Positions 7,472-63,758 of a stretch of 64,000 nt of DNA are shown in pieces. Within the stretch, counting starts at the first letter, position 1, and each line of letters opens with the position of its first letter. The notes under the pieces are model-generated. The model did not search any database, was not told the origin of the DNA, and saw only the letters and a list, made by a program, of their open reading frames with translations. The stretch is from Mobula hypostoma (lineage: Eukaryota): positions 16,864,001-16,928,000 of the forward strand of contig NC_086108.1 of NCBI RefSeq assembly GCF_963921235.1. Direction: 5' to 3'. Both the position numbers and the translations under genes were made by a program.

Positions 7472-8228
7472 CTGCAAATAGTGGAAAGTTGAAACAAGAC
7501 AGAGAAAGCCAGTCTCAGTCACCAAGTAAAGCCAAGTCTATGGGAGAAAATCAAGAGCCAAAGTCTGTTCATCAGTGCAAATAAATTGTAGGTGCTATAC
7601 ATTGGAAACTAGAACAGAAAATACTGAAGGACTCCCAATGAATTCTGTTATGTGATGCAACTTGACCTCTTGAATGGTTCCAGAATTTTCTGTTCTGGTG
7701 ATCTGAAGTTTGAGTTCTCAAGGTGTCAAAGATTGATGAGAATGCTATTGTCCAAAGAAATAGACAATTACGATCAAAGAGACTGAGAAACTCTGCAAAA
7801 AGTTTCTCCCCAAACTACTCTGACAATAGCTTTTATCACAGGAGAGGTGATCATAACATAGATGTGCTCCAATCCAAGAAGCCTGCTGGTATCTGTAACA
7901 CTTACCCAGAACCTTAAGAACCTAATCCTGAGGGAAAATTTGGTTTGTTTGATCTACCTCTAAATCAGTGCAGAAGGAATAATACCAGAAGTCGAGCATT
8001 ATTCCCAGACAACTGCTAAACTAAAAACAGGAAAACAAGTCACCAATCCCAAGAATTAACATCCAATAGTTTTTCTGTCTGCAAATTAAGTAGCTCGCCC
8101 TGAACCAGATAAAAAAAACCCCAGAAACTGCTTTCATAAGGAAATCTGCACATGCTGGAATTTCAAGCAACACACATTAAAGTTGTTGGTGAACACAGCA
8201 GGCCAGGCAGCATCTCTAGGAAGAGGTA

Positions 8229-8266
8229 CAGTCGACGTTTCGGGCTGAGACCCTTCGTCAGGACTA
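8229..8266 (-). ncRNA. Minimal type I hammerhead ribozyme in PLE pLTR
   Basis: Minus strand reads TAGTC-CTGACGA-AGGGTCTCAGCCC-GAAA-CG-TC^GACTG: conserved core, helix II, and helix I pairing AGTC/GACT. Confidence 0.8.
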
Positions 8267-10426: not shown

Positions 10427-10464
10427 TAGTCCTGACGAAGGGTCTCGGCCCGAAACGTCGACTG
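10427..10464 (+). ncRNA. Minimal type I hammerhead ribozyme in PLE pLTR
   Basis: TAGTC-CTGACGA-AGGGTCTCGGCCC-GAAA-CG-TC^GACTG. Confidence 0.8.
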
Positions 10465-10672
10465 TACCTCTTCCTAGAGATGCTGCCTGGCCTGCTGCGT
10501 TCACCAGCATTTTTTGTGTGTGTTGCTCAGAAACTGCTTTATTACATTATCAGAGAGAAAAATTGTTGACCCAACCAGTGCTTTATACTATCAACACAAA
10601 GTCAGGATGTCAGAGAGAGATGCAAATAGGAGCTGCTTTCATAGCTATATCATTGACATTTGACAGCCCTTT

Positions 10673-27518: not shown

Positions 27519-27945
27519 CTGCAGCATAGAAAATTTAGGAAGATTAAAGTTCTTATTTATATAATATCTAGCATATTCCCAGAGCCTCTCAAACCACTTC
27601 ATAAACCAGTAATTAACTATTCATAGTAATGTAGGCATATGTAGTATTAATTTGTGCATTGGGAATTCAAAAGCAAAACAGATAATTCATCAGATAATTT
27701 GTTTTGATTGAGTGCTGAAATCTGATCAGAACTGAGATTACATACCTTTTTCAAATAGTGCCATGTGATCTTTAACACATCTGAACAAATCTAGTTTATC
27801 ACCTCATTGATAGGACAACACCAACTGCATAGTTTTCCCTTGATTTGTCTCTAAAACTAACATTCTAATCTGCATTTGAGTTCTGAAGCAATATACGAAT
27901 ATCGATCTGCTAACTCTTGAGAAAACTACTGTTAAGAACAAAAGC

Positions 27946-28153
27946 AACACACATCAAAGTTGCTGGTGAACGCAGCAGGCCAAGCAGCATCTATAGGAAG
28001 AGGCGCAGTCGACGTTTCAGGCCGAGGAAGGGTCTCGGCCTGAAACGTCGACTGCGCCTCTTCCTATAGATGCTGCTTGGCCTGCTGCGTTCACCAGCAA
28101 CTTTGATGTGTGTTGCTTGAATTTCCAGCATCTGCAGAATTCCTGTTGTTTAC
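27946..28153. mobile_element. Miniature foldback Penelope-like insertion made only of pLTR ends
   Basis: 15-bp TSD GTTAAGAACAAAAGC at 27931-27945 and 28154-28168. Perfect 85-bp inverted arms with a 7-nt loop. Confidence 0.92.
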
Positions 28154-29260
28154 GTTAAGAACAAAAGCTTTTATTGTCCACCAATGCTTTTATTGTCCCA
28201 TTTTGGACTCTCAGGCTGAAGGTCGCATGACAACTTTATCAACAGATTGTGAGTTCAGACATCACTTTAGTACTTGAACATAGTATAAGATATCAGATTT
28301 AGTGGTATCCTAGAGAAAAGTTTGGGCTTGCTCAAAAATGTAGCAGGCATCTGACTAAAATCAAACATAGCATTGAAATTCATAAAACTATCCAAAAATG
28401 TTTGTATTTATTGCAATGCACACTTGCTATATAATTCCAAATAATTTGTTGACCTTGAAGAAATACACTATTTCAATATCATTCCAATATTTTAACTACT
28501 CTCTCTCAAAGACCAGAGTGATATTCCAGTCAGTCTAAAGTTACTTTAATCAGCAAATGAGAGTAAGTATTAACCCAGAACAACTAATCCGGATAAGTGT
28601 GAGGTGATGCATTTTGGAAGGACAAACCAGAAGGCTGAGTACAGGGTTAATGCTCAGTTTCTTAAGAGTGTGGATGAACAGAGGGACCTGGGGGTTCAAA
28701 TCCATACATCCCTCAAGGTCGCTACACAGATTGATAGGATAGTTAAGAAGGCCTATGGGATGCTAGGCTTCATTAATAGGGGGACTGAGTTCAAGAGTAG
28801 AGAGGTCATGTTGCAACTCTACAAATCTCTGGTGAGACCACTCTTCGAGTATTGTGTTCAGTTCTGGTCACCTCATTACAGGAAAGATGTGGAAGCTATG
28901 GAGAGGGTGCAGAGGAGATTTACCAGGATTTTGCCTGGATTGGAAAACAAGTCTTATGAGGCAAGGTTAGCAGAGCTGAGACTTTTCTCTATGGAGCGTA
29001 GAAGGATGAGAGGGGACTTGATAGAAGTCCACAAGATTATGAGAGGCATAGATAGGGTGGATAGCCAGTACCTGTTTCCCAGGGCACGAATAGCAAACAC
29101 CAGAGGGCATATGTAGGAAGTTAAGGGAAGGAAGTTTAGGGGAGACATCAGGGGTATGTATTTAAACAACAGGAATTCTGCAGATGCTGGAAATTCAAGC
29201 AACATACATCAAAGTTGCTGGTGAACGCAGCAGGCCAGGCAGCATCTATAGGAAGAGGCG

Positions 29261-29298
29261 CAGTCGACGTTTCAGGCCGAGACCCTTCGTCAGGACTA
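29261..29298 (-). ncRNA. Minimal type I hammerhead ribozyme in PLE pLTR
   Basis: Minus strand TAGTC-CTGACGA-AGGGTCTCGGCCT-GAAA-CG-TC^GACTG. Confidence 0.8.
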
Positions 29299-29592
29299 AC
29301 TGAAGGAAGAGTGAGTAAGGGATTTGAAAGCTGGAGGGGGAGGGGGAGATGCAAAATGATAGGAGAAGACAGGAGGGGGAGGGATGGAGCCGAGAGCTGG
29401 ACAGGTGATAGGCAGAAGGGGATACGAGAGGATCATGGGACAGGAGGTCCGGGAAGAAAGACGGGGGGGGGGGGTGACCCAGAGGATGGGCAAGAGGTAT
29501 ATTCAGAGGGACAGAGGGAGAAAAAGGAGAGTGAGAAAAAGAATGTGTGCATTAAAAAGAGTAACAGATGGGGTACGAGGGGGAGATGGGGC

Positions 29593-31203
29593 CTAGCGGA
29601 AGTTAGAGAAGTCAATGTTCATGCCATCAGGTTGGAGGCTACCCAGATGGAATATAAGGTGTTGTTCCTCCAACCTGAGTGTGGCTTCATCTTTACAGTA
29701 GAGGAGGCCGTGGATAGACATGTCAGAATGGGAATGGGATGTGGAATTAAAATGTGTGGCCACTGGGAGATCCTGCTTTCTCTGGCGGACAGAGCGTAGA
29801 TGTTCAGCAAAGCGGTCTCCCAGTCTGCGTCGGGTCTCACCAATATATAAAAGGCCACATCGGGAGCACCGGACGCAGTATATCACCCCAGTCGACTCAC
29901 AGGTGAAGTGATGCCTCACCTGGAAGGACTGTTTGGGGCCCTGAATGGTGGTAAGGGAGGAAGTGTAAGGGCATGTGTAGCACTTGTTCCGCTTACACGG
30001 ATAAGTGCCAGGAGGGAGATCAGTGGGGAGGGATGGGGGGGACGAATGGACAAGGGAGTTGTGTAGGGAGCGATCCCTGCGGAATGCAGAGAGAGGCGGG
30101 GAGGGAAAGATATGCTTAGTGGTGGGATCCCGTTGGAGGTGGCGGAAGTTACGGAGAATAATATGTTGGACCCGGAGGCTGGTGGGGTGGTAGGTGAGGA
30201 CCAGGGGAACCCTATTCCTAGTGGGGTGGTGGGAGGATGGAGTGAGAGCAGATGTACGTGAAATGGGGGAGATGCGTTTAAGAGCAGAGTTGATAGTGGA
30301 GGAAGGGAAGCCCCTTTCTTTAAAAAATGAAGACATCTCCCTCGTCCTAGAATGAAAAGCCTCATCCTGAGAGCAGATGCGGCGGAGACGGAGGAATTGC
30401 GAGAAGGGGATGGCGTTTTTGCAAGAGACAGGGTGAGAAGAGGAATAGTCCAGATAGTTGTGAGAGTCAGTAGCCTTATAGTAGACATCAGTGGATAAGC
30501 TGTCTCCAGAGACAGAGACAGAAAGATCTAGAAAGGGGAGGGAGGTGTCAGAAATGGACCAGGTAAACTTGAGGGCAGGGTGAAAGTTGGAGGCAAAGTT
30601 AATAAAGTTAACGAGTTCTGCATGCGTGCAGGAAGCAGCGCCAATGCAGTCGTCGATGTAGCGAAGGAAAAGTGGGGGACAGATACCAGAATAGGCACGG
30701 AACATAGATTGTTCCACAAACCCAACAAAAAGGCAGGCATAGCTAGGACCCATACGGGTGCCCATAGCTACACCTTTAGTTTGGAGGAAATGGGAGGAGC
30801 AAAAGGAGAAATTATTAAGAGTAAGGACTAATTCTGCTAGACGGAGCAGAGTGGTGGTAGAGGGGAACTGATTAGGTCTGGAATCCAAAAAGAAGCGTAG
30901 AGCTTTGAGACCTTCCTGATGGGGGATGGAAGTATATAGGGACTGGACATCCAAGGTGAAAATAAAGCGGTGGGGGCCAGGGAACTTAAAATCATCGAAA
31001 AGTTTAAGAGCGTGAGAAGTGTCACGAACATAGGTCGGAAGGGATTGAACAAGGGGTGATAAAACAGTGTCGAGGTATGCAGAAACGAGTTCGGTGGGGC
31101 AGGAGCAAGCTGAGACAATAGGTCGGCCAGGACAGGCAGGTTTGTGGATCTTGGGTAGGAGGTAGAAACCGGAAGTGCGGGGTGTGGGAACTATAAGGTT
31201 GGT
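29593..31203 (-). CDS. PLE reverse transcriptase plus GIY-YIG endonuclease (about 536 aa, no native start)
   Basis: Stop-free frame: FYLLPKIHK, GRPIVS, LDVQSLYTSI, GVAMGTRMGPSYA, RYIDD, linker CKRNKCYTC and GVIYCVRCSRCGLLYIGET. Confidence 0.92.
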   Translation of the reverse strand, partial: TNLIVPTPRTSGFYLLPKIHKPACPGRPIVSACSCPTELVSAYLDTVLSPLVQSLPTYVRDTSHALKLFDDFKFPGPHRFIFTLDVQSLYTSIPHQEGLKALRFFLDSRPNQFPSTTTLLRLAELVLTLNNFSFCSSHFLQTKGVAMGTRMGPSYACLFVGFVEQSMFRAYSGICPPLFLRYIDDCIGAASCTHAELVNFINFASNFHPALKFTWSISDTSLPFLDLSVSVSGDSLSTDVYYKATDSHNYLDYSSSHPVSCKNAIPFSQFLRLRRICSQDEAFHSRTREMSSFFKERGFPSSTINSALKRISPISRTSALTPSSHHPTRNRVPLVLTYHPTSLRVQHIILRNFRHLQRDPTTKHIFPSPPLSAFRRDRSLHNSLVHSSPPSLPTDLPPGTYPCKRNKCYTCPYTSSLTTIQGPKQSFQVRHHFTCESTGVIYCVRCSRCGLLYIGETRRRLGDRFAEHLRSVRQRKQDLPVATHFNSTSHSHSDMSIHGLLYCKDEATLRLEEQHLIFHLGSLQPDGMNIDFSNFR

Positions 31204-31469
31204 AGCAGGGGTATGTATTTTTTTTACACAGTGGGTTGTGGGTGCCTGGAATGACTTGCCAGGGATGGTGGTGGAGGCTAAAACATTAGGGGTATTTAAG
31301 AGCCTCTTGGACAGGCACATGGATGAAAGAAAAATAGAGGGTTGTGGGGTAGTGTGGGTTTAGTACATTTTTTTAGGAATATATGGGTCGGCACAACATC
31401 GAGGGCCGAAGGGACTGTACTGTGCTGTAGTATTCTAGTGTCTAGTGTCTAAAACTGAAAGCATCTTGC

Positions 31470-46807: not shown

Positions 46808-46936
46808 AACAAGAGAAAATCTGCAGATGCTGGAAATCCAAGCGACACAAAAATGCTGGAGGAACTCAGCAGGCCAGGCAGCATCTATAGAGAAAAGTAC
46901 AGTTGACGTTTCGGTCCGAAACCCTTCAGCAGGATT
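46808..46936 (-). mobile_element. PLE pLTR terminal fragment with degenerate hammerhead
   Basis: CTGCTGA-AGGGTTTCGGACC-GAAA-CGTCAACT plus the pLTR end. Confidence 0.75.
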
Positions 46937-49200: not shown

Positions 49201-49771
49201 TCTCCACCATTCCAGCCTTAGCCGGCCCTTTCAACATCCACCGCTAACACGGTCCTGCTACTATGATCAAGAAGCAGCACACTGATAGGGTAGCACTTCA
49301 GTGTTCAATGCACTTGAAGTAGAATTGTCTTAGGATTGTAAAAACAAATTTTACAAAAAGAAAACATCTTTGGTTGGTCCCCAAGAGGCTGCTGCATTTG
49401 CATGTACTGCCATCTTACTGGAATCTCTTTTTTTCCCCCTTTTCAAAGTACCTTTGAAGACCCTGAAGTGGAGTTACACTCTGACTTCGGTTCTTTGCAG
49501 GAATGGGACCCACTCACAGGGCTTCAGGACCAGCCCTTTTGCTATCCCAAGGACGTGGCCTGGAAGGCACGTGCACCTTCAGGATTCTGGATTTTCGTAG
49601 GCCTGGAGACATGCTGATTCTAGGCCGGTACCCCTTATTGAAGCGTCGCATGGGGACATGGAACAGGTTAGCTGCCGGGGGTTGTGTGTAAGGAGAGCAG
49701 TGCCTTTTTGGTGCCGGCTCTTTAGGCGCAGAGCTCGTAAAAAGTGACAGAACAAACTTTTAACATCATAA

Positions 49772-50696
49772 TTCGGAGAAGGAAGTCTGAGAATCGGAGT
49801 GGGAGTGCGAAGGAATCCATTTTTGAATTTTTCATTTTTTTTCCATCGGCGTTCAGAGAGGCGGGACTGCGCAGGGGTGTGACGTCGGACAGTGAAGCGC
49901 GGAAGATTTAAAAGGAACAGAGCCTTATACAGCGGGCAGCGTAGTTTACGGCCTGCGGAGTGAGCGGGAGCAGTGTGAAGGCTTAAGGGCTTCGTCTCAA
50001 CGGACTTAGGTGGAAATGGGCGAGGCGAGGAAGGTTTGGTATTCGTTTTTTGTTGTTATTTGAGGAGAGGGGCAGTATGAGTGTGAGGGCAGTTTGTTGT
50101 TCTCGATGCCGGATGTGGGAGGTCCTGGAGTCTCCAAGCCTCCCGGACGTCCACATCTGCGACAGGTACACCGAGATGCAGCTCCTAAGGGACCGCGTTA
50201 AGGAACTGGAGCTGCAGCTCGATGACCTTTGTCTGGTCAGGGAGAGTGAGGAGTTGATAGAGAGGAGTTACAGGCAGGTGGTCACACTGGGGCCACGGGA
50301 CGGAGACAAGTGGGTCACAGCTAGGACGGGGAAGAGGAAGAGTCAGGTAATAGAGAGTACCCCAGTAGCTGTGCCCCTTGACAATAGGTACTCCTGTTTG
50401 AGTACTGCTGGGGAGGGGGGACAACTTACCTGGGGGAAGCGACAGTGGCCGTGCCTCCGGCACAGAGTCCAGCCCTGTGGCACAGAAGGGTAGGGAAAGG
50501 AAGAGGAGAGCAGTAGTAATAGGGGACTCGATAGTAAGGGGGTCAGATAGGCGATTCTGTGGACGCAGTCCAGAGACCCGGATGGTAGTTTGCCTCACTG
50601 GTGCCAGGGTCCGGGATATTTCTGATCGCGTCCAAGATGCCTTGAAGTGGGAGGGTGAGGAGCCAGAGGTCGTGGTACCAATGACATAGATAGGAA
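49772..50696 (+). mobile_element. 5' part of a full-length CR1 (5' UTR, ORF1 zinc finger/leucine zipper, start of SGNH esterase)
   Basis: ATG at 50077: MSVRAVCCSRCRMWE..LLRDRVKELELQLDDL, then AVVIGDSIVRG. Ends at GACATAGATAGGAA. Confidence 0.9.
49861..49915 (+). promoter_or_regulatory. Putative CR1 internal promoter
   Basis: CpG-rich, with a CRE-like TGACGTC at 49880 and a TATA-like TTTAAAA at 49907. Confidence 0.45.
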
Positions 50697-51389
50697 GTTG
50701 GAGAACAGATAGTTGCGTTCACCAGCAACTTTGATGGATATTGAGCTAAGTTGTCTTTATTTGCAGCCAGTTATCAGAGACTCCTTGTTAAATCTTAAAG
50801 TCCATTTTTCTTTCAGTCTTAACTGCATCGTCTCCAGTGCCCCTAAAATAGTTCCGAGACTTAAGATACAGTGGACTCAAGTGCTATCTAATCAGTGTTC
50901 AGTACCAGTTTTTCGATGTTCAACTTTTCGCTTGAAATAAATACTAGTGCTTGATTTGCTTTATTTATGAGCTTGAAATTTTGTGTGCAACTCTTAATGA
51001 TTGGCATATATGTACCCAGAGTTCTCTTCTATAACCCCTACCCCACATGGACTTGTACCATCCAAAAATCTGTCCTTTCTGTACTGCCCTGCATTTATCT
51101 TTGTAGGACTTTATTTACCAATTATTCACCAATTTATTTACCAATTCATATGTTAAAGTCTTCCTCACTCTTAACCGTAACATCAGTTTGGTATGAGCCT
51201 CAAAACTTAGAAACAGGATATTTGATTCCAGTTTTAATTATAAATTCAGCACTAATGACAGAAAATCTGAAGATACTGTAAATCCAAAGGAACACACACA
51301 AAATGCTGAAGGAACTCAGCAGGCCAGGCTGTATCAATGGAAAAGAGTAAACAGACAATGTTTCAGGCTGAGACTTCAGGGGAAGAAAG

Positions 51390-52440
51390 CCTGCATGTAT
51401 TAACCCTATTTATATCCCATCTATGCTCCAGAAAATAAAGTCCAAACCTATTCAACCTTTCCCTATAACTCAGTTCCTCAAGTCCCAGCAATATTCTTGT
51501 CTTGTAAGTTTTCTCCACACTCTTTCAAGTTTACTGATATCTTTCCTGTAGGTAGATGACCAGGACTGCACCTATTACTCTAAATTTGGCCTCACCAACA
51601 TCTTATACAACTTTAACATAGAAACATAGAAAATAGGTGCAGGAGTAGGCCATTCGGCCCTTCGAGCCTGCACCGCCATTTATTATGATCATGGCTGATC
51701 ATCCAACTCAGAACCCCGCCCCAGCCTTCCCTCCATACCCCCTGACCCCTGTAGCCACAAGGGCCATATCTAACTCCCTCTTAAACATAGCCAATGAACT
51801 GGCCTCAACAGTTTGCTGTGGCAGAGAATTCCACAGATTAACGTAACATCTGAACTCCTGTACTCAGACCTTGGTGTCCTGCATTCACAGTGCAAGTCCA
51901 ACCCTACTTTGTCCACCTAGTGTGCAGCATTTCGCACTTGTCTGCATTAAGTTTCCTCTGCCTTTTTTGGTAGCTGGTCCAGATCATGCTGTAAGCTTTA
52001 ACCTTCCTTGCCATTCCCTACTCCCCCAATCTTGGTGTCATCTGAAAATCTGCTCATTCAATTTACCATATTATCAACTAAATAATTAATATAGATGATA
52101 AAAAAACAATGGATCCAGCACCAATCCCTGTGGCACACCACTAGTCACAAAGACAATTATCTATTACCACTCTCTGCCGCCTTCTGCCAAGCCAATGCTG
52201 AATCTAATTTAGTATTTCATTCTGAATGGCAAGTGACTTCTGGACTAGCCTCCCATGTAGGACTTTGCCAAAGACCTTGCTAAAGTCCATGTAGACAATG
52301 TCCACTGCCTTTCCTTCATCAACCTTTTTGAAACCTCCTCAGAATTTCTTAAGATTGGTTAGACATGGCCTGCAATACACAAAGCCATGTTGTCCCTAAT
52401 CAGGCCCTGCTTATCCAAATAATTTTATATCCTGTCCCTT
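51390..52440 (-). mobile_element. Old CR1 fragment with a younger CR1 3' end nested at about 51616-51840
   Basis: CR1-like RT remnants interrupted by an ACATAGAAACATAGAAAATAGG-tailed copy. Confidence 0.7.
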
Positions 52441-54059
52441 AGACAGGACATTAACTCTGCTACTGCCTGTACAGATGCTATTTGACCTGTTAGGTATTTC
52501 AAACATTCTACATTTTTATTTTTACTTCATCAATTTGTTCTTGTCAGTTCCAGCATTTAATATTTTTTTGTTCTATCCTCATCCTTGGGTTTCATTTGTC
52601 TCCTACATCATCGAGACAGATTATTGGCAAGTTTTTACTGCCCTCCGCCATCCAATATTGCCAACTCGAGTGTCATTCAATCTCTCTGTATAATCTGAGA
52701 GATTCTTTTGTTCTCTCCATCCCACCAAAAACCTGTTGGATTTCTAAGTTTTTTTCCACTTCTGATTTTAAAAAGTCATCAACCTGAAATGTGAACTATG
52801 TTTCCCCTTTAACAGGTGCTGCCTGGCCTGCTAAGTATTGCTCACATTCGCTGTTTTTATTTGGATCACTTCTTAACCTCTTGTAAGACCTTACCAGCTG
52901 TTGCCGTTTGAAAAGATTTTCCCTCTCCTCAAACTGTTCTGTGTGCATTCTATCATCTCATCCTCTCAGTTGTTTTGTCAATTAGATTTATCTAGTCTAA
53001 ATGATTATAGTCTTCTCATGTTTATTATATCGTCCTTGCTACAAGCACATTTTATACTTAATTAATCCTCTTCCCAACACCCATAACCCACTCCAACCAA
53101 TTTTTAAATGTTGCCATTTATCTCTTATGTGCTCCCAAAATGACTTCCCCATCTGTTGTGTGACAACATAATTTCTTTCTCCTCCCCTTGCATCTTCTTT
53201 TATGAAAGGTACTTACTCCTTTTCATTTTCCTTTATGTCTGTCCTTTTGAAACATTGACAACTGCAGAATAGTTCCAGCCTTGGTTGCCATGCAACTTCA
53301 GCTCTACTCTGGCCTTTTGTTTGAAAGCATTCATAGTCGGGGACAAGCATCAAAGTGGTTTCTTCCGGATGATTTTTAAAAAATTGAAATATTTTAATAG
53401 CAGAACAGAATCTACTTTTATGGGCAGTAATGTGAGTGCACAGACCAGTGCTGATTATGATGTGATAAATTTAGTTTAAGACCTAACTTTTTCAGCTGAG
53501 TGTACCTCGTGTCTTTCATGCTGACAAGATACCGCTTCTTGAAGAGGAGTTTTCTCATTTCCAGTGTTTAATCATGTGTAGAACTGGAAGTTGTTGTTTA
53601 ATAACAATAAGTGCTATTAGCTTTTTTATTTCTAAACGCGAAACATGACCAATACTGTTTCAAGATAGCTTTGTCCATTACTTGTTATCAAGGAATTACA
53701 CACAAGAATGATTGCAAAGGATGCCACTGAGCTGTTAAACTCATTATTTGGCTGTCAACTTTACACAAAACATTTATTTGTGTTCAATCTAGGCCTAATA
53801 CAAAGACTTGTTATCTTATTTTCTGCTCAACTTGCTTGTTTGGCACAGGTAATTATTTCTGTTCCTCCATTTTGTGCAGCATTTATCTTAGAAAAAGGAA
53901 AACTTCCTTTTAATATACAGTAGCTCATGTAGCGAAAAGCTATGTAGGAGATGAGCTGTGTAGAGTGGTCCATCTTTGGCTCAACAGGCTTGGGCAAACA
54001 CAGACAGAGATCTGAAGTAAATTTCTAGTATTTTCTTTTCACTTTTTTTGTGTTTCAGT

Positions 54060-57000
54060 ACATAGTTGGTGCACTGAGAATGGATGCTGTGTTGATGTGG
54101 GAACTCTGAGACTCTCCTCCCCCCCACCCCCCACCCCGTTTCCCTGATAACTATATTTGCATGAAGTGCATTGAGCTGCAGCTCATGTAATCATGTTAGG
54201 GCCAGTGCAGCTCAATGATCTTCTGGTCATACAGGAGATTGACAAGATGATAGATAGGATTTACAGGGAGGTAGTCGCCCCTGAGTTGCAGGAGGAAGGA
54301 AGTTGCTAACTGTCAGGAGAGGAAAAGCAAATAGGCAGCTAAGTGGTCATTCGCCTCAATAAAAATTATACTGCTTTGCCTACTGTTGGTGGGGTATGAC
54401 CTACCAGGGAGTAGGTCTCTGTCTCTGTGGCTCAGACAAAAAAGTGGGGGGGGGGGGGGCAGGAGAAGGAGACGAGTGCAGTAGTGATAGGAGATTCCAT
54501 AGTTAGAGGAGTAGACAGGAGATTGTGTGAATGTGAAAAAGACACCCGGATGGTATTTTGCCTCCCAGACATCAGGGTTAGGGATGTCTCGGTTTGGGTT
54601 CACAGCATTCTAAAGGGGGAGGGTGAGCAGCCGGAACTCGTGGTACATATTGGTACCACCAACATGGGTAGGAAATAGGAAGAGATCCTAAAGAGAAAAT
54701 ATAGTGAGTTAGGTGGAAAGCTGAAAAGCAGGACCTTCAGGGTAGTAACCTCCGGATTGCTGCCTGTACCACCTGCCAGTGAGGGTAGGAATAGGATGAT
54801 CTGGCAGATGAATGTGTGTCTGAGGAATTGGTGCAGGGGACAGTGTTTCACATTTCTAGATCATTGGGATCTCTTCTGGGGAGGGTATGACCTGTACAAA
54901 AAGAATGAGTTAAACTTGAAAATGATGGGGACCAATATCCTTGCAGGCAGGTATGCTAGAGCTGTTGGGGAGGGTTTTAACTAATTTAGTAGGGGGAAGG
55001 GAACTGGAGTGATAAGGCTGAGGTTGAGGTATTTGGAATACAAGTAGGTGCAGTGTGTTCTGAGACTGAGAAAGGACAGGTAGATGATGGGGCAAAATTG
55101 CACTCAGTGGGATAATTTGAAGTGTAACATGAAGGCAAAATTAAAATGGATGATGAATACAGGATTGAAGGTGTATTTGAATTGCACACAATATACAGAA
55201 TAAGGTCAATGATATTGTGCAATTAGAGATTGGCAGGTACGACATTGTGGGCATCACTGAGTCATGGCTGAACGAAGATCACAGTTGGGAGCTTAACATC
55301 CAAGGATGCACATAGTATCGAAAGGACAGGTAGATAAGCAGAAGGGTGGAGTGGCTCTGTTGGTAAAAAAAAATGAAATCACATCCTTAGAAATAGGTGA
55401 TATAGGTTTGGAAGATTTAGCTTCCTTGTGGGTGGAGTTAAAAAGCTGCAGAAGTAAAAAGACCCTGTTGGGAGTTGTATACAAGCTTCCAAATAGTACC
55501 TAGGTTCTCGGGTACAAATTACAGTGGGAGATAGAAAAGACATTGTTACGTACCCCGTAACTGGGTTGCCAAACCAGCAGAAATGGACCACTCAGTTGGA
55601 GTCTGGATTACTGGAACTAAGGAAGTTTTATTAAAGAAATAAGCAACACAGTACTCTAATAGTAAGGTTATAAATGCAACAGGTTAGCAATGAATAAACA
55701 CACATGTACACAGAACTAGGATAATAGGATCAATCAAGCTCTATCGCAGTCTCGGGGTAAATGACCAGTTTCAAGTGACGCAAAGTTCAGTTCAATTGAG
55801 TTCAGTTCAGTTCGCAGTAATCACTGTTGTGCCGTCGGGCGGGGAAAAGGAGAGAGAGCGAAAGCGAATGAATATTCAAAACGGATTCCACACAGACCTT
55901 GATATTCCTTGCAGTTAGCTTTCGGGTGAGTCCTTGGTAATGTCTTCTGAGGTCACGGACTGTGACCCCTCCGTTCCAGACACAATCGTTCTTCAGCGGT
56001 GAACCCGGCACCCAGGCAAGGGCGGACACACACCAGGTTCCCGCCGACCGTATCTTTCCACCCTGTGCGTCTATGGCTAGTCCCGCGACCAAACCTCCAA
56101 AACTCCCACCGACTTGTGGGGGCGCACCGCTTTCAGGGTCTCGTTACCTCGTGGTGTCGTGTGTGTCGTGTCTTAGCGAACCTGCCCCTTTTTATCCCCC
56201 TGCTGGGGTATCGCCTGTCCATCACACTTCAAACAGTTCAGGGTTCAAAAGGAGCCGGTCTTGACAATATTCAGACCGTTGTCTCCTTCCGTTAAACTCT
56301 CTCGTCTCTTCATTAACATTTCCAAATGCCGCTCCATTGTCTTACTTATCTCCCTCTCCTGAAGACAGGTGGCAGATCAACTGTTGATCCCACTGGTGCT
56401 AGCACAGGGCAGTTAACATCTTAGTCTACGTGTACTTTTGTAACCCTCTTTCATCACAACATGTAATAAGGGCAATGTTATAGTAATAGGGGAGTTCAAT
56501 ATGTAGGTAGATTGGAGAAAATCATGTTGGTGCTGGATCCCAAGAGAGGGAATTTGAAGAAGTCCTTAAGATGGCTTTTTAGACTAGCTTGTCGTTGAGC
56601 CCACTAGGGGAAAGGCAATTCTGGATTGGGTGTTGTGTAATGAACCAGGTTTATTAAGATACAGGAACCGTTAGAAAACAGTGATCATAATATGACTGAA
56701 TACACCATGAAGTTCTGAGAGGGAGATTATGAAGTCAGATGTATCAGTATTACAGTAGAGTAAAGGGAATTACAGAGGTCTGAGAGAGGAGCTGGGCAAA
56801 GTTGATTAGAAGGGGACAACAGCAGAACATCAATGGCTGGAGTTTCTGGAGGCAGTTCAGAAGATGCAGGATAGTTACATCTCAAAGATGAAGACGTATT
56901 CTAAAGAGAGAATGAGGCAACTGTGGCTGATCAAGGGAAGTCAAAGACAGCACAAAAGCAAAAGAGACGGCATTTAATATAGCAAAAATTTGTGAGAAAT

Positions 57001-57075
57001 TAAAGGGTTGGGAAGCATTTAAAGCAGGAGTGAGTGATATTGCTATTACTGAGGAGGTGCTTGGGAAGCTGAAAG
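54060..57075 (+). mobile_element. Degraded CR1 (ORF1 esterase and APE) hosting a solo LTR
   Basis: AVVIGDSIVRG, FLDHWDLFW, GGVALLVK..LWVELK..LLGVVYKLPNS. Confidence 0.85.
55544..56458 (-). mobile_element. Solo LTR, family A variant (915 bp)
   Basis: Homologous to 37671-38515, TG...CA termini, 4-bp TSD ACAT at 55540-55543 and 56459-56462. Confidence 0.88.
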
Positions 57076-57082
57076 GGATTCA

Positions 57083-58105
57083 ATGGGTTTCAATAGGTAC
57101 ATTTAATGTCAGAGAAATCCTGAAATTCTTTTTCTTCGTAAACATCCACAGAATCAGAATCAGGTTTATTATCACTGGCATATGATTTGAAATTTGTTAA
57201 CTTAGCAGCAGCAGTTCAATGGAATACATAATCTAGCAGAGAAAAAATATATAATGATAATAGTAAATAAAATTTAAAAATAAATAAGTAAATCAATTAC
57301 ATATACTGAGTAGATTTAAAAAATGTGCAAAAACAGAAATACTGTACATTTAAAAAGAAGTGAGGTAGCATCCAAAGATTCAGTGTCCATTTAGGAATCG
57401 TATGGCAGAGGGGGAGAAGCTGTTCCTGAATCGCCGACTGTGTGTCTTCAGGCTTCTGTACCTCCTATCTGATGGTAACAGTGAGAAAAGGGCAAGCCCT
57501 CGGTGCTGGATAATGAACGGTGTCTTTCTGAGACACCGCTCCCTGAAGATGTCCTGGGTACTTTGTAGGCTAGTACCCAAGATTTACAATCTTATAACCA
57601 TATAACAATTACAGCACGGAAACAGACCATCTCGACCCTTCAAGTCCGTGCCGAACTCTTACTCTCACCTAGTCCCACCGACCTGCACTCAGCCCATAAC
57701 CCTCCATTCCTTTCCTGTCCATATATCTATCCAATCTTCTGCAGCTTCTTTCAGTCCTGTGCAGTAGCCCCTCCATACCATACCAGTCAGTAATGCTGCC
57801 AACAGAGGAGTGCCCCGAAGAATGAATGACAGTTAAAACCTTGGAACCACAGCTCCCCCTCCCATGTACAAGCAGCAGCAAGGCAATGATCACCCCACTA
57901 GCAAAAAAAGCATCAGTACCCTCCACCGAGCACTCAAGTGTGCAGCAAAGCATCAATAAAGACACAGACTTGAAATACCCCAAAAACTACTTGTTCACCC
58001 AGTCATTCAACATATCACAAGTTGTCTCTCTTCCTACTAACGGATAAAGAGGTGTCCCTGTTTCACAGCAAGAGGGGAGACATAACAAATAACTCACTGA
58101 TTTAG
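57083..58105 (-). mobile_element. Nest: unclassified repeat containing a Rex1 3' end (~57151-57800), itself containing a CR1 tail (~57586-57735)
   Basis: Abrupt tails, and each host sequence resumes after the insert. Confidence 0.6.
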
Positions 58106-60806
58106 ACATAGAAACATAGAAAATAGGTGCAGGAGGAGGCCATTTGGCCCTTCAAGCCTGCACCGCCATTCAGTATGATCATGGCTGATCATCCAACTCA
58201 GAACCCTGTACCTGCCTTTTCTCCATACCCCCGATCCCTTCAGCCACAAGGGCCATATCTAATTCCCTCTTAAATATAGCCAATGAACTGGCCTCAACTG
58301 TTTCCTGTGGCAGAGAATTCCACAGATTCACCACTCTCTGTGTGAAGAAGTTTTTCCTCATCTTGGTCCTAAAAGGCTTCCCCTTTATCCTCAAACTGTG
58401 ACCCCTCGTCCTGGACTTCCCCAACATTGAAAACAATCTTCCTGCATCTAGCCTGCCCAATCCCTTTAGGATTTTATACGTTTCGATAAGATCCCCCCTC
58501 AATCTTCTAAATTCCAACAAGTATAAGCCTAGTCAATCCAGTCTTTCATCACATGAAAGTCCTGCCATCCCAGGAATCAATCTGGTGAACCTTCTTTGTA
58601 CTCCCTCTATGGCAAGGATGTCTTTCCTCAGATTAGGGGACTAAAACTGCACACAATACTCCAGGTGTGGTCTCACCAAGGCCTTGTACAACTGCAGTAG
58701 TACCTCCCTGCTCCTGTACTTGAATCCTCTTACTATGAATGCCAGCATACCATTCGCCTTTTTCACCACCTGCTGTACCTGCATGCCCACTTTCAATGAC
58801 TGGTGTATAATGACACCCAGGTCTCGTTACACCACCCCCTTTCCTAATCGGCCACCAATCAGATAATAATCTGTTGTTTGCGTTAATAATCTGTTTTCCT
58901 GTTTTTGCCACCAAGGTGGATAACCTCACATTTATCCACATTAAATTGCATCTGCCATGAATTTGCCCACTTACCTAACCTATCCAAGTCACCCTGCATC
59001 CTCTTAGCATCCTCCTCACAGCTAACACTGCCGCCCAGCTTCGTGTCATCCGCAAACTTGAAGATGCTGCATTTAATTCCCTCATCTAAGTCATTAATAT
59101 ATATTGTAAACAACTGAGGTCCCAGCACTGAGCCTTGCGGTACCCCACTAGTCACTGCCTGCCATTCTGAAAAGGTCCCGTTTATTCCCACTCTTTGCTT
59201 CCTGTCTGCCAACCAATTCTCTATCCACATCAATACCATACCCCCAATATCGTGTGCTTTAAGTTTGCACACTAATCTCCTGTGTGGGACCTTGTCAAAA
59301 GCCTTTTGAAAATCCAAATATACCACATCCACTGGTTTTCCCCTATCCACTCTACTAGTTACATCCTCAAAAAATTCTGAGAGATTCGTCAGACATGATT
59401 TTCCTTTCACAAATTCATGCTGCACTACCTTCGCTGATTTATTCTTTTGCCAAACTGGGATGAACAATTGTTGTAGTTCATCCATGTGATCTTTAAATGC
59501 TTGCCATTGCATATCCACCGTCAACCCTTTAAGTATCATTTGCCAGTCTAGCTTAGCTAATTCACATCTCATACCTTCAAAGTTACCCTTCTTTAAGTTC
59601 AGAACCTTTGTTTCTGAATTAACTATGTCACTCTCCATCTTAATGAAGAATTCCACCATATTATGGTCACTCTTACCCAAGGGGCCTCTCACGACACTAA
59701 CCCTTCCTCATTGCTCAATACCCAGTCCAGAATAGCCTGCTCTCCAGTTGGTTCCTCGACATGTTGGTTCAAAAAACCATCCCGCATACATTCCAAGAAA
59801 TCCTCTTCCTCAGCACCCTTACTAATTTGGTTCACCCAATCTATATGTAGATTGAAGTCACCCATTGTAACTGCTGTTCCTTTATTGCACGCATTTCTAA
59901 TTTCCTGTTTAATGCCATCCTCAACCTCACTACTACTGTTAGGTGGCTTGTACATAACTCCCACCAACGTTTTCTGCCCCTTAGTGTTATGCAGCTCTAC
60001 CCATATTGATTCCACATCCTCCCAGCTAATATCTTTCCTTTCTATTGCGTTAATCTCCTCTCTAACCAGCAATGCTACCCAACCTCCTTTTCTTTCATGT
60101 CTATCCCTCCTGAATATTGAATATCCCTGAATGTTGAGCTCCCATCCTTGGTCACCCTGGAGCCATGTCTCTGTGATCCCAACTGTATCATATTCATTAA
60201 TAACAATCTGCACTTTTAATTCATCCACCTTGTTACGAATGCGCCTTGCATTGACACACAAAGCCTTCAGGCTTGCTTTTACAACACTCTTAGCCCTTAT
60301 ACAATTATGTTGAAAAGTGGCCCTTTTTGATTTTTGCCCTGGATTTGCCGGCCTGTCACTTTTACTTTTCACCTTACTACTTTTTGCTTCTACCCTCATT
60401 TTGCACCCCTCTGTCTCTCTGCACGTGTTCCCATCCCCCTGTTGTGAACTAACCTCCTCTCTCCTAGTCTCTTTAATTTGATCACCACCCCCCAACCATT
60501 CTAGTTTAAAGTCACCTCAGTAGCCCTCGCAAAGGTCCCCCTAGGATTCAAGTGTAACCCGTCCTTTTTGTACAGGTCACACTTGCGCCAAAAGAGGTCC
60601 CAATGATCCAAAAACTTGAATCCCTGCCCCCTGCTCCAATCCCTCAGCCACGCATTTATCCTCCGCCTCATTGCATTCCTACTCTCATTGTCGCATAGCA
60701 CAGGCAGTAATCCTGAGATTACTAACTTTGCAGTCCTTTTTCTCAACTCCCTTCCTAACTCCCTATATTCTCCTTTCAGGACCTCTTCCCTTTTCCTATC
60801 TATGTC
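58106..60806 (-). mobile_element. Remainder of the split CR1 (esterase end, APE, RT, tail) with an internal ORF2 deletion near 59422
   Basis: Begins DIDRKREEVLKGEYRELG, continuing from the NDIDR end at 50696. [28 protein letters not shown] and KFADD follow. Confidence 0.9.
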
Positions 60807-61645
60807 CATTAGCGGAAGTTGAAGAAGTCGACGTTCATGCCATCAGGTTGGCGGCTACCCAGACAGAATATAAGGTGTTGTTCCTCCAACCTGAGTGTGG
60901 CTTCATCTTTACAGTAGAGGAGGCCGTGGATAGACATGTCAGAATGGGAATGGGATGTGGAATTAAAATGTGTGGCCACTGGGAGATCCTGCTTTCTCTG
61001 GCGGACGTAGGTGTTCAGCAAAGCGGTCTCCCAGTCTGCGTCGGGTCTCGCCAACATAAAGAAAGTCACATCGGGAGCACCGGACGCAGTACGTCACCCC
61101 AGTCGACTCACAGGTGAAGTGTCGCCTCACCTGGAAGGACTGTTTGGGGCCCTGAGTAGTATCGTCTGGGTAGCCTCCAACCTGATGGCATGAACATCGA
61201 CTTCTCCAACTTCCGGTAATGCCCCACCTCCCCCTCGTACCCATCCGTTATTTATTTTTATACACACATTCTTTCTCTCACTCTCCTTTTTCTCCCTCTG
61301 TTTCTCTGACTATACCCCTTGCCCATCCTCTGGGTTCCCCCCTCCTTTGTCTTTCTCCCCGGACCTCCTGTCCCATGATCCTCTCATATCCCCTTTGCCA
61401 ATCACCTGTCCAGCTCTTGGCTCCATCCCTCCCCCTCCTGTCTTCTCCTATCATTTTGGATCTCCCCCTCCCCCTCCCACTTTCAAATCTCTTACTAACT
61501 CTTCCTTCAGTTAGTCCTGACGAAGGGTCTTGGCCTGAAACGTCAACTGTACCTCTTCCTAGAGATGCTGCCTGGCCTGCTACGTTCACCAGCAACTTTG
61601 ATGTGTGTTGCTTGAATTTCCAGCATCTGCAGAATTCCTGTTGTT
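60807..61645. mobile_element. Penelope-like inverted insertion at the right inversion breakpoint (minus arm 60807-61155, 7-nt filler, plus arm 61163-61645)
   Basis: GIY-YIG fragment on the minus strand. Endonuclease end, pLTR and tail on the plus strand. Confidence 0.9.
61512..61549 (+). ncRNA. Minimal hammerhead ribozyme in PLE pLTR, helix I mismatch
   Basis: TAGTC-CTGACGA-AGGGTCTTGGCCT-GAAA-CG-TC^AACTG. Confidence 0.7.
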
Positions 61646-61949
61646 AGCTCAATATGTCTGGTTTTGAGATGCTTTTCTATTTTTTTCCTTTAGTAGACAA
61701 CCTTTCACACTAATGACCAGTTCCCCAAGTAGACTAGTTCCCTGGACACGTTATGCCTCTTTAGTTTTGGTATGTTTGTCCTCATCAATACATAGTGAAT
61801 AAATGGTTAAATTTGTGTAATCGTGACCCATCTTTAATAAATTGTTTTAAAATGTGGATATATTTACACCAGGACTAATGAGCTTGATTCGTTTGTCTAT
61901 TCTCTGCCTATTTACGACTCTAATGTATCACAGCTTAGAAAGGGTGTAA

Positions 61950-63758
61950 GGAATAAACATTAGAACGAGGTCAGAGGCAACATCAGATTCAAGGCAACTC
62001 TGGCAGGGTCTGCAAGACATTACTTCCTACAACTCGAAATCCAATAATATGAATGGCAGCGATACTTCACTACCAGATGAACGCAATGCCTTCTATGTCT
62101 GCTTTGAAAGGAAGAACACAACTACAGCTGTGAAGATCCCTGCTACACCTGATGACCCTGTGATCTCCATCTTAGAAGCTGATGTTAGGCTGTCTTTAAA
62201 GAGTGAACCTTCACAAGGCGGAAGGTCCCGATGGAGTACCTGGTAAGGTTCTGAAAACCTGTGTCAACCAACTAGCGGGAGTATTCAAAGACATTTTCAA
62301 CCTCTCACTGCTCCGGGCAGAAGTTCCCACTTGCTTCAAAAAGGCAACAATTATACCAGTGCCTAAGAAGAATAATGTGGGCTGCCTTAATGGCTATCGC
62401 CTGGTAGCACTCACATCGACAGTGATGAAATGCTTTGAAAGATCGGTCATAACCAGCCTGAACTCCTGCCTCAGCAAGGACCTGGACCCATTGCAATTTG
62501 CCTATTGCCACAATAGCTCAACGACAGATGCTTTCTCAATAGTTTTCCATATGGCTTTAGATGATCTGGGAAACATAAACACCTATGTCAGGTTGCTGTT
62601 CATTGACTATAGCTCAGGATTTAATACCATCATTTACACAATCCTGATTGAGAAGCTGCAGAACCTGGGCCTCTGTACCTCCCTTTGCAATTGGATCCTC
62701 AATTTCCTAACCAGAAGACCACAATCTGTGCAGATTGGTAATAACATATCCTCCTTGCTGATGATCAACATTGGTGCACCTCAGGGGTGTGTGCTTAGCC
62801 CACTGCTCTACTCTCCACATACACATGACTGTGTGGCTAGGCATGGCTCAAATACCATCTACAAATTTGCTGCTGATACAACCATTGTTGGTAGAATCTC
62901 AGATGGAGACGAGAGGGCGTACAGGAGTGAGATATGCCAACTAGTGGAGTGGTGCCGCAGCAACACCTGGCACTCAACGTCAGTAAGATGAAAGAACTGA
63001 TTGTGGACTTCAGGAGGGGTAAGACAAAGGAACACATACTAATCCTCATAGAGGGATCAGAAGTGGAAAGAGTGAGCAGTTTCAAGTTCCTGGGTGTCAA
63101 GGTCTCTGAGGACCTAACCTGGTCCCAACATATTGATGTAGTTATAAAGAAGGCAAGACAGCGGCTATACTTCATTAGGAGTTTGAAGAGATTTGGCATG
63201 TCAACAAATACACAAAAACTTCTATAGATGCACCGTGGAGAGCATTCTGACAGGCTGAGTCACTGTCTTGGTATGGGGAAGGGGGGGGGGGCAGGGTTGG
63301 CTACTGCACAGGACCAAAAAAAGCTGCAGAGGGTTGTAAATCTAGTCAGCTCCATCTTGGGTACCAGCCTACAAAGTACCCAGGTCACCTTCAGGAAGCG
63401 GTGTCTCAGAAAGGCAGCGCCCATTATGAAGGACCCCCAGCACCCAGGGTATGCCCTTTTCTCACTGTTACCATCAGGTAGGAGGTACAGAAGCCTGAAG
63501 GCACACACTCAGCGATTCAAGAACAGCTTCTTCCTCTCTGCCAACCTATTCCGAAATGGACATTGAACCCTTGGACACTACCTCACTTTTTTAATATACA
63601 GTATTTGTTTTTTGCATGATTTTTAATCTATTCAATATACATATACTGTAATTGATTTACTTATTTATTATTTTTTCCTTCTATATTATGTATTGCATTG
63701 AGCTGCTGCTAAGTTACAAATTTCATGTCACATGCTGTGATAATAAACCTGATTCTGA
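61950..63758 (+). mobile_element. Rex1/Babar-type LINE, 5'-truncated and frameshifted
   Basis: [42 protein letters not shown] and a CTGATTCTGA tail. Confidence 0.88.

Follow-up and report, generated by a model that had tools for sequence, protein, structure and literature searches.

In the twin priming of L1, credited to Ostertag and Kazazian 2001, the second 3' end of a staggered cut is said to prime reverse transcription as well, so that a segment of the element is inserted in inverted orientation. Rearrangements that also involve host DNA have been described for human L1 in tumours and cell models, where the available portions of two reports describe how one or two events gave rise to reciprocal inversions in which L1 'bridges' and TSD-like 'heteroduplications' are found (10.1101/2024.08.27.596794; 10.1101/2024.12.14.628481; TSD, target site duplication). 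Inversions of another kind are attributed to Galileo in Drosophila buzzatii, and were generated by ectopic recombination between inverted transposon copies according to the accessible part of the source (PMC6278893). For Penelope-like elements (PLEs), the purified protein from anole cuts and extends both DNA strands, and the 30-40-bp 'tail' is defined by the two adjacent internal sites at which its reverse transcription starts (PMC11167929). Inverted 5'-truncated copies with such a tail are typical of PLEs, as stated in the accessible part of another report (PMC8557442).

Here we describe a locus in Mobula hypostoma at which PLE sequence lies at both ends of an inverted host segment, between copies of two short target words, X and Y. 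As far as the L1 reciprocal inversions and translocations are described in the available portions of those reports, the locus seems to share with them a balanced exchange between two staggered double-strand breaks, 'bridges' of retroelement cDNA, TSD-like duplications with one copy at each junction, bridges whose structure excludes later homologous recombination, and one canonical end combined with twin-priming-like pieces. It differs from them in that the element is a PLE, whose predicted nuclease is of the GIY-YIG type, whereas L1 has an AP-type nuclease; in that the hallmarks are the two internal start sites of the PLE and no poly(A) is present; and in that the event is small (10 kb) and found in the assembled germline genome of a cartilaginous fish, unlike the somatic L1 events. 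In twin priming only the 5' part of the element itself becomes inverted, and the cDNAs of one cut are joined between direct TSDs; at this locus, by contrast, the TSD copies have inverted orientation and are separated by 10 kb.

Target words and an interrupted LINE

The window analysed is a stretch of 64,000 nucleotides (64 kb), in which an exact match search found the 14-mer GACATAGATAGGAA at 50683-50696 on the plus strand and 60793-60806 on the minus strand, and the 12-mer ATATTGAGCTAA at 50738-50749 on the plus strand and 61644-61655 on the minus strand. Both inverted pairs had been reported in a preliminary description of this DNA and are present as claimed there, each word having exactly two matches in the window, one per strand (shuffle expectation 0.00 and 0.01). 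The same 13 kb contains five further exact inverted pairs of 12-14 nt (I10, I12, I13, I16 and I18). Inverted exact 12-14-mers are not in themselves rare, and the weight of the 14-mer and the 12-mer therefore rests on their position. We call the first copy of the 14-bp target word X (50683-50696, plus strand) and its inverted copy X' (60793-60806, minus strand; pair I9). The 12-bp word that adjoins a PLE 3' end is called Y (61644-61655, here taken as the plus orientation), and its exact inverted copy Y' (50738-50749, minus orientation). The first two T of the Y word are equally assignable to the PLE tail.

Between the duplicated words lies an inverted host segment of 10,043 bp (50750-60792, minus orientation as read from the LINE), in which the 3' part of the LINE is accompanied by single-copy DNA and by other repeats. 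Eight open reading frames in 50955-56295, searched for host coding content, gave no Pfam matches. Both flanks of Y (including 50738-51258) are single-copy in the Mobula hypostoma assembly, which contains no second haplotype of the locus, and the sole basis on which the DNA would have been continuous across Y is the 12-mer.

X lies within a LINE. The 5' part of this copy (49766-50696, plus strand), which is cut off on its 3' side at X, matches other genomic copies at 90-92% identity as far as 50696, and its 3' part (58106-60806, minus strand) matches these same copies at 91-93% identity from 60806 downwards. All nine genomic copies compared (L002-L010) align to about 50696 and then resume at 60806 running downwards. 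For eight of them the alignments end exactly at 50696 and 60806, with a 14-nt overlap in the copy, where X is single; the exception is L009, whose left alignment ends at 50678. Because of this collinearity in 9/9 copies and the exact overlap in 8/9, X is a genuine duplicated target. The restoration by flipping that had been claimed earlier is confirmed in silico, as re-inversion renders the LINE collinear. A 3'-truncated LINE is not a normal insertion product, and the private divergence of the two parts is similar (22/523 in the 5' part and 42/1359 in the 3' part). In the 3' part, which includes the 3' UTR, Pfam searches identified a GDSL esterase domain (C-terminal half), an AP-type endonuclease and a reverse transcriptase. 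The N-terminal half of the GDSL domain gave no Pfam match left of X. The LINE 3' end near 58106 is the common end of 5'-truncated copies.

PLE sequence at the two junctions

The PLE family is represented in the window by an ORF of 588 aa (29593-31359, minus strand), which matches RVT_1 (E 1.2e-5; 25.5 bits, below the Pfam cut-off of 29.6) and, after it, GIY-YIG (E 4.6e-4; 20.9 bits, below the cut-off of 22.6). Among its 909 homologues, many have precomputed PF00078 and some PF01541; no relatives were found in the PDB. The family possesses inverted 5'-truncated copies with a 30-40-bp tail at one end, since head-to-head copies occur at 9/29 other genomic loci and in two insertions in the window, with one outer end at reference position 3000 and the other at 2960-2971 (second arms). 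Its TSDs vary in length: clear flush direct repeats of 9-16 bp flank the element at 14 of 24 loci, seven loci have none of at least 9 bp and three are doubtful, and the PLE insertions in the window have TSDs of 13 and 15 bp. The resemblance to PLE TSDs that the preliminary description saw in the two duplications holds, with 14 and 12 bp both inside the family range, and the 14-bp stagger at X is the mode of the family's TSD lengths. For the TSD-less copies, no convincing inverted partner was found inside their 3.2-kb loci; for L057, a search of 6 kb on each side gave none of at least 11 nt. A weak nick-site pattern fits both Y half-sites and one of the two X half-sites, and is not decisive for X. 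No hammerhead ribozyme was matched in Rfam at E <=0.1 over 50600-61800 or at E <=10 over 61440-61643. By eye, we take a CTGACGA...GAAAC string near 61517-61541 to resemble a hammerhead core.

Junction b (60807-61643) is made up of two oppositely oriented PLE arms with a 58-nt inverted overlap. The antisense arm (60807-61160, minus strand) covers the end of the predicted GIY-YIG coding region and begins 2 nt past the stop codon, beside X'; positions 60810-61155 are 93.4% identical to PLE reference positions 2573-2223 and 94-95% identical to the best genomic copies. The sense arm (61165-61643, plus strand) comprises the last 54 coding nt and the 3' UTR (91.5% identity to reference 2520-3000) and reaches the family's full 3' end beside Y, its end at 61643 being the same 3' end as in other PLE copies. 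Over its final 240 nt it shares 96-99% identity with 39 other copies. An age gap between the arms was considered and rejected, as this higher identity is a regional property found in all copies. Both arms are of one age, because their private differences amount to 11/345 and 10/468 and the overlap has 4 mismatches. The inversion is old enough for 2-3% private substitutions to have accumulated.

Junction a (50697-50737) is much shorter. Its left piece consists of 9 nt of antisense PLE sequence from just upstream of the PLE stop codon (50697-50705, minus strand; pair I15), or of 13 nt if the GGAA in common with the 14-mer of X is counted, and the 13 nt are an exact inverted match to 61202-61214. 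They match PLE reference positions 2569-2557 at 12/13 sites (E 0.78), which is not significant as a free search and becomes so only because the match falls within about 11 nt of the start of the antisense arm in junction b. An 8-nt filler follows (50706-50713, no strand), without assigned source and with a PLE match at chance level only (50706-50715 against reference 1716-1707; 10/10, E 0.2); by eye, it has AGATAG in common with X. The right piece, 23 nt of sense PLE sequence (50714-50736, plus strand), is identical to the reference at all 23 positions (2938-2960; E 3e-9) and ends at the family's second, 'tail-less' reverse-transcription start site, one extra G at 50737 separating it from Y'. 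The preliminary description had PLE sequence filling both junctions. This stands in so far as PLE sequence is found in each, but junction b is not one piece and has two opposed arms, and in junction a the PLE pieces of 9 and 23 nt are accompanied by the filler and the extra G.

Junctions b and a end at reference positions 3000 and 2960, respectively, and Y is flush with the two PLE ends apart from the 1-nt gap on the junction a side; Y hence bears the family's normal integration signature. The locus has three features of a retrotransposition-mediated reciprocal inversion as defined for human L1. It is balanced, with PLE sequence at both junctions and no loss of LINE sequence at X; TSD-sized duplications (14 bp for X and 12 bp for Y) are split between the junctions in inverted orientation; and a canonical hallmark of integration, expected at one breakpoint at least, is found at Y in the form of the full 3' end together with the tail-less start site. 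No such hallmark is seen at X, where the pieces start near the stop codon. Among the other copies examined, none has a PLE outer end near reference position 2570. L052, a candidate for an arm starting near 2568, was rejected as a young copy beside an older, diverged antisense copy.

Origin of the inversion

We consider it reasonably probable that a single aberrant PLE integration inverted 10 kb of host DNA. The ancestral order would have been left flank, X, inner segment, Y and right flank, with X inside the LINE copy. The PLE ribonucleoprotein would have cut Y, making its usual staggered double-strand break (12 bp). Both Y 3' ends would then have served as primers for reverse transcription, each at one of the two start sites customary in the family. 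From the right-hand end, copying would have begun at the complete 3' end of the RNA and given the sense arm at 61165-61643; from the inner end it would have begun about 40 nt upstream and given the 23-nt piece at 50714-50736. A second staggered cut, of 14 bp, would have opened X 10 kb away. One X end would have come to bear 354 nt of antisense cDNA from just past the stop codon of the ORF (60807-61160), and the other 9 nt from nearly the same place, after the 4-nt GGAA overlap (50697-50705). The ends would have been joined crosswise instead of pairwise, the long X' cDNA to the cDNA of the right Y end and the short X cDNA to the short cDNA of the inner Y end via the 8 filler nt, and the inner segment would therefore have been flipped and each target word duplicated in inverted orientation. 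At all four DNA ends, PLE sequence is present in the polarity expected of cDNA grown from a 3' end.

This course of events would agree with normal PLE insertion in the extension of both 3' ends at Y, from start sites about 40 nt apart (PMC8557442, in its accessible part; PMC11167929), and in the antisense/sense inner junction, which is like that of the 9/29 other copies. It would depart from normal insertion in that the two Y cDNAs were not joined together but each to one end of another cut, 10 kb distant, and in that host DNA was inverted, not element DNA only, with the TSDs inverted and split. The proposal in the preliminary description, an inversion during PLE insertion, is borne out in part, with the anatomy of the sequence, the collinearity of the LINE, the start sites of the family and the range of TSD sizes as its observed side. 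The remaining parts are of another standing: we infer that X and Y were cut together in one event, that the GIY-YIG nuclease made the cut at X, and that the PLE pieces on the X side were primed on RNA rather than copied from DNA. Some features speak against a single step. The X-side pieces start at neither usual start site, the 9-nt piece may be a templated insertion that arose in end joining, junction a contains 8 nt without explanation, and the nick-site pattern is found at one X half-site only. Self-annealing of a resected end, as in the 'end remodelling' model for L1, was set aside, as it gives no free 3' end at X' for the 354-nt arm.

The same final sequence would be expected if a head-to-head PLE insertion at Y had been followed by a later, unrelated inversion breaking inside it, an account that deserves attention though we think it unlikely. 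In the insertion, the antisense arm would have run from about 2960 to 2223 and the sense arm from 2520 to 3000, with a 12-bp TSD at Y; one break would have fallen in the antisense arm with the loss of 361 bp, the other would have been a 14-bp staggered break at X, and the ends would have been sealed by end joining with a templated insertion. When the inversion is undone, the 23-nt piece does fall in line with the antisense arm of junction b, as one antisense arm running from 2960 to 2223 with 361 nt missing, and the restored insertion at Y looks canonical, its arm lengths and inner junction being like those of other copies. Furthermore, the 13-nt GGAAGTTGGAGAA at junction a repeats, after a microhomology of 4 nt, sequence that is located 7-19 nt from where junction b ends, and a short templated insertion after microhomology is the look of polymerase-theta-type end joining. 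A random break in a PLE would not be rare either, with about 7 kb of PLE sequence in the 64-kb window. However, a repeat-independent inversion of 10 kb would have to break in exactly this PLE, and also to leave a clean, lossless 14-bp duplication of PLE-TSD size at X while the other end lost 361 bp; the accessible part of one L1 report states that TSD-like duplications are rare at breaks made by non-L1 agents (10.1101/2024.12.14.628481). A single event in which the PLE break at Y recombined with a break of independent origin at X, not made by the PLE nuclease, is in our estimate improbable. Such a break could come from another nuclease, the endonuclease of another retroelement or replication damage, with PLE RNA or cDNA captured at the X ends, and in the L1 work ends made by L1 reportedly recombine with L1-independent breaks. 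The non-canonical PLE positions at which the X ends begin, and the single X half-site that is like the weak nick-site pattern, would suit this account, but the stagger of 14 bp coincides with the family TSD mode and PLE sequence is present at both X ends.

Ectopic (non-allelic homologous) recombination between two separately inserted PLE copies, one at X and one in the opposite orientation at Y, would likewise leave swapped TSDs (X...Y' and X'...Y), as in other inversions of that origin, and the TSD pattern at the two junctions is indeed swapped. In contrast to the Galileo inversions, no homologous inverted copy pair is present at the breakpoints, and the element reconstructed at X would have internal antisense sequence on both sides, without a 3' end, and hence would not be a PLE product. 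The only other inverted pair near the ends (51258-51374 and 61527-61641) is 73% identical and lies off the breakpoints. Junction a is no longer than 41 bp, and the 23-nt piece within it has the same orientation as the sense arm of junction b rather than the inverted one; both observations contradict recombination and bear out its exclusion in the preliminary description, leaving it scarcely credible. We also regard it as very improbable that the assembly has a mis-oriented 10-kb segment. Tandem and inverted PLE structures are said to trouble assemblies in the accessible part of one source (PMC8557442), and the sequencing runs that contain 0.90-0.92 of the words of the junction a stretch may come from the source sample and thus not be independent; the word shares of 0.90-0.92 and 0.32-0.34 in sequencing runs are uninformative on the junctions. 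Misjoins arise at long repeats, however, and the two breakpoints have no long inverted repeat; nor do misjoins produce flush inverted duplications of 12 and 14 bp from single-copy words, or cDNA-like bridges with the start sites of the family.

Implications for PLE integration

Literature searches found no published reports of a PLE-made inversion of this type. Events of the type are on record for human L1, from tumours and from cell models, and the new aspect here would be the PLE as agent. If the reading as a single aberrant PLE integration is true, the locus would extend the process beyond human L1 for the first time and would be its first instance in a GIY-YIG retroelement. It would then be a natural 'fossil' of an integration intermediate, with four primed ends, two of them at start sites of the family.

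PLEs are abundant in the genomes of fish, reptiles and invertebrates, yet most of what is known about how they integrate comes from a single in vitro study. A one-step origin of the locus would give in vivo support for the extension of both strands at two start sites, and would mean that PLE integration intermediates are free double-strand ends able to rearrange host DNA. On balance we lean towards the view that PLE integration complexes can engage two chromosomal sites at once and resolve them crosswise, giving balanced inversions. If so, PLE activity would give rise to balanced inversions in vertebrate germlines directly and independently of recombination.

Duplicated words and the breakpoint in a LINE copy

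The two short words bordering the inverted host segment of about 10 kb lie exactly where the preliminary description had placed them, each occurring once per strand: a 14-mer, X, at 50683-50696 (+) with its inverted copy X' at 60793-60806 (-), and a 12-mer, Y, at 61644-61655 (+) with Y' at 50738-50749 (-). The same 13 kb contains five further pairs of exact inverted matches 12-14 nt long, and such words are unremarkable in themselves; the weight of X and Y lies in their location.

A search of the 3.48-Gb assembly, with the 397 nt lying left of X as query, supplied nine other LINE copies, each taken with 1.5-kb flanks. All nine align up to about 50696 and resume at 60806 going down the minus strand (87-93% identity). 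In eight of them the alignment ends precisely at 50696 and 60806, with 14 nt of the copy in common, while in L009 the left alignment ends earlier, at 50678. Because these copies are collinear, with the 14-nt overlap in eight, X is a 14-bp segment from a single copy of the LINE, now present twice, inverted and 10 kb apart. The nine copies run unbroken across X, which bears out the earlier proposal that re-inversion gives a collinear LINE, and the private differences of the two halves from the column majority of the nine (22/523 and 42/1359 sites) are compatible with their being one copy.

The minus-strand half, from the break to near 58106, encodes the C-terminal half of a GDSL esterase directly after the break (profile 85-175 of 178), then an AP-type endonuclease and then RT; no N-terminal half of the esterase was detected left of X by Pfam. 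Other repeats within the inverted segment include two. One, of 272 nt (54662-54933), is away from the breakpoints, is 74% complementary to LINE 60534-60805 and is an older diverged LINE fragment in opposite orientation. The other, of about 920 bp (55541-56464), has at least 28 other genomic copies (94-96% identity) and no match in a Pfam search.

The evidence for Y is positional, since both its flanks (50738-51258 and 61644-61960) are single-copy within the assembly and no comparison sequence spans the restored site. One copy of the 12-mer directly follows a normal 3' end of a Penelope-like element (PLE) at 61643, an end common to other PLE copies, and the other follows a 23/23 PLE match plus one extra G. 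By our arithmetic, the chance of a 12-nt identity at two predefined places is on the order of 1e-6, a few nt of slack per side included.

The PLE family and its insertions

The PLE copy at 29167-31400 (-) contains an open frame of 588 aa (29593-31359) with RVT_1 followed by GIY-YIG, both weak and under the Pfam cut-offs. The frame has 909 homologues at E <=1e-10, with precomputed RVT_1 in many and GIY-YIG in some, and its closest named relatives are from Mobula hypostoma and Hypanus sabinus. The nearest public relatives, from ray genomes, are annotated as 'uncharacterized protein' or as host-gene isoforms ('divergent protein kinase domain 1C isoform X2', 'chitinase domain-containing protein 1 isoform X1'), and these host-gene names suggest that gene models of the host have incorporated PLE fragments. 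No hammerhead ribozyme was matched by Rfam around both junctions and the PLE 3' end. Short fragments at 51258-51374 and 46810-46934, 73-80% identical to the last ~120 nt of the PLE, are either older relatives of it or belong to a non-autonomous element with the same 3' end as the PLE.

Positions within the element are given on a ruler, the last 3000 nt of the 29167-31400 (-) copy, with 3000 as the 3' end. Among 29 other PLE loci found by a genome search with the last 240 nt, nine have two arms head-to-head, with one outer end at 3000 and the other at 2960-2971. Two further insertions in the window share this layout. The first (8122-10540) has a minus arm from 8139 to ~9095 (957 bp) that reaches the full 3' end and a plus arm from ~9094 to 10527 (1434 bp) that stops 31 nt before it, between direct 13-bp target site duplications (TSDs; CAGAAACTGCTTT, at 8122 and 10528). 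The second is a miniature (27931-28168) whose direct 15-bp TSD lies at 27931 and 28154 and whose arms measure ~85 and ~125 bp, so that very short cDNA arms can be counted as normal in this family. Both layout and two-ended starts agree with published PLEs: inverted 5'-truncated copies with a 30-40-bp 'tail' at one end are described as typical (PMC8557442), and in work with a purified PLE protein from anole both strands were cleaved and extended, with reverse transcription from two adjacent internal start sites that delimit the tail (PMC11167929).

TSDs were surveyed in the 24 loci with both boundaries inside the locus, five with a boundary outside being excluded. In 14 the ends are flush with direct repeats of 9-16 bp (median 13), three are doubtful, and seven (L038, L049, L052, L054, L056, L057 and L060) have none of at least 9 bp, which could reflect target deletions, rearrangements or misplaced boundaries; L052 adjoins an older PLE copy. 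The duplications of 12-14 bp at X and Y are thus of TSD size for this family, as had been suggested.

Anatomy of the junctions and origin of the inversion

Junction b (60807-61643) reads X', antisense arm, sense arm, Y. The antisense arm (60807-61160, -) runs from 2576 to 2223, starting 2 nt beyond the stop codon, and the sense arm (61165-61643, +) from 2520 to 3000; their overlap spans 58 nt, 4 of them mismatched. Junction a (50697-50737) reads X, GTTGGAGAA, 8 unexplained nt, 23 nt of sense PLE (2938 to 2960), one G and Y'. Here GTTGGAGAA is antisense PLE (~2565 to 2557; 13 nt if the GGAA common with X is counted). PLE pieces are therefore present in both junctions, but the earlier statement that PLE sequence fills them needs amending for the 8 nt and for the two opposed arms of b. 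From this layout it follows that all four DNA ends carry PLE sequence with the polarity of cDNA grown from each end's 3' hydroxyl. At Y, one end begins at each of the family's two start sites. At X, the ends begin at most ~11 nt apart close to the stop codon, a position not usually used as a start. Measured against the column majority in other copies, the junction b arms have private differences at 11/345 and 10/468 sites; they are therefore of one age, slightly younger than the LINE. The last 240 nt of junction b show higher identity to other copies; this was considered as a sign of younger age and rejected, identity in that region being high in all copies.

We consider it probable that the inversion arose in a single event, in which two staggered double-strand cuts, of 14 bp at X and 12 bp at Y, would have been made, their 3' ends extended by copying PLE RNA, and the extended ends joined crosswise. 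An ordinary head-to-head insertion at Y, followed by an unrelated inversion, would give identical sequence if the inversion had its breaks within the antisense arm and at X, and a short stretch templated near the opposite end was inserted. Undoing the inversion brings the 23-nt piece into line with the junction b antisense arm; together they form one antisense arm spanning 2960 to 2223 that lacks 361 nt, and with the sense arm make a perfectly ordinary head-to-head insertion at Y. We rank this history below the single event and regard it as rather unlikely, because a second rare event must strike the same PLE, and X must gain a clean duplication of 14 bp, the size of a PLE TSD, even as 361 bp disappeared from another end. 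Misassembly of the segment is far less plausible still, as it would not produce flush inverted duplications of target words. Least credible of all is ectopic recombination between two inverted PLE copies; it would also swap TSDs, but it requires homologous inverted copies at both junctions, and junction a is only 41 bp, with a PLE piece direct rather than inverted relative to the junction b sense arm. Moreover, the presumed element at X would lack a 3' end and be bounded on each side by internal antisense sequence.

The earlier rejection of recombination in favour of PLE cuts thus agrees with the structure, while its choice of nuclease is less secure at X. A weak nick-site pattern among 28 half-sites (G or A at +1, T at +3 and +4, G at +5) fits both Y half-sites and only one X half-site; hence we infer, rather than observe, that the PLE GIY-YIG nuclease made the X cut.

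Comparison with L1-mediated rearrangements

A small hunt among PLE copies without TSDs yielded no second PLE-bridged inversion, and L057, one such locus, has no inverted partner within 6 kb. No report of PLE integration inverting host DNA was found in the literature searched, including the available parts of Drosophila virilis and Chlamydomonas mutation-accumulation work. For Drosophila virilis, the consulted text of PMC6278893 goes no further than to name Penelope as something that might indirectly cause inversions, and the accessible portions of other work describe retrotransposon insertions at a polymorphic inversion without naming Penelope as its cause. The outcome proposed here is just that described for human L1, where reciprocal inversions and translocations that are bridged by L1 and carry 'heteroduplications' come from one or two synchronous events, with later homologous recombination excluded (10.1101/2024.08.27.596794). 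Similarly, L1-made double-strand ends are described as recombining with the TSD feature retained (10.1101/2024.12.14.628481, available part). The kind of event is already known for L1; new are the class of element, the nuclease and the hallmarks, together with the germline setting.
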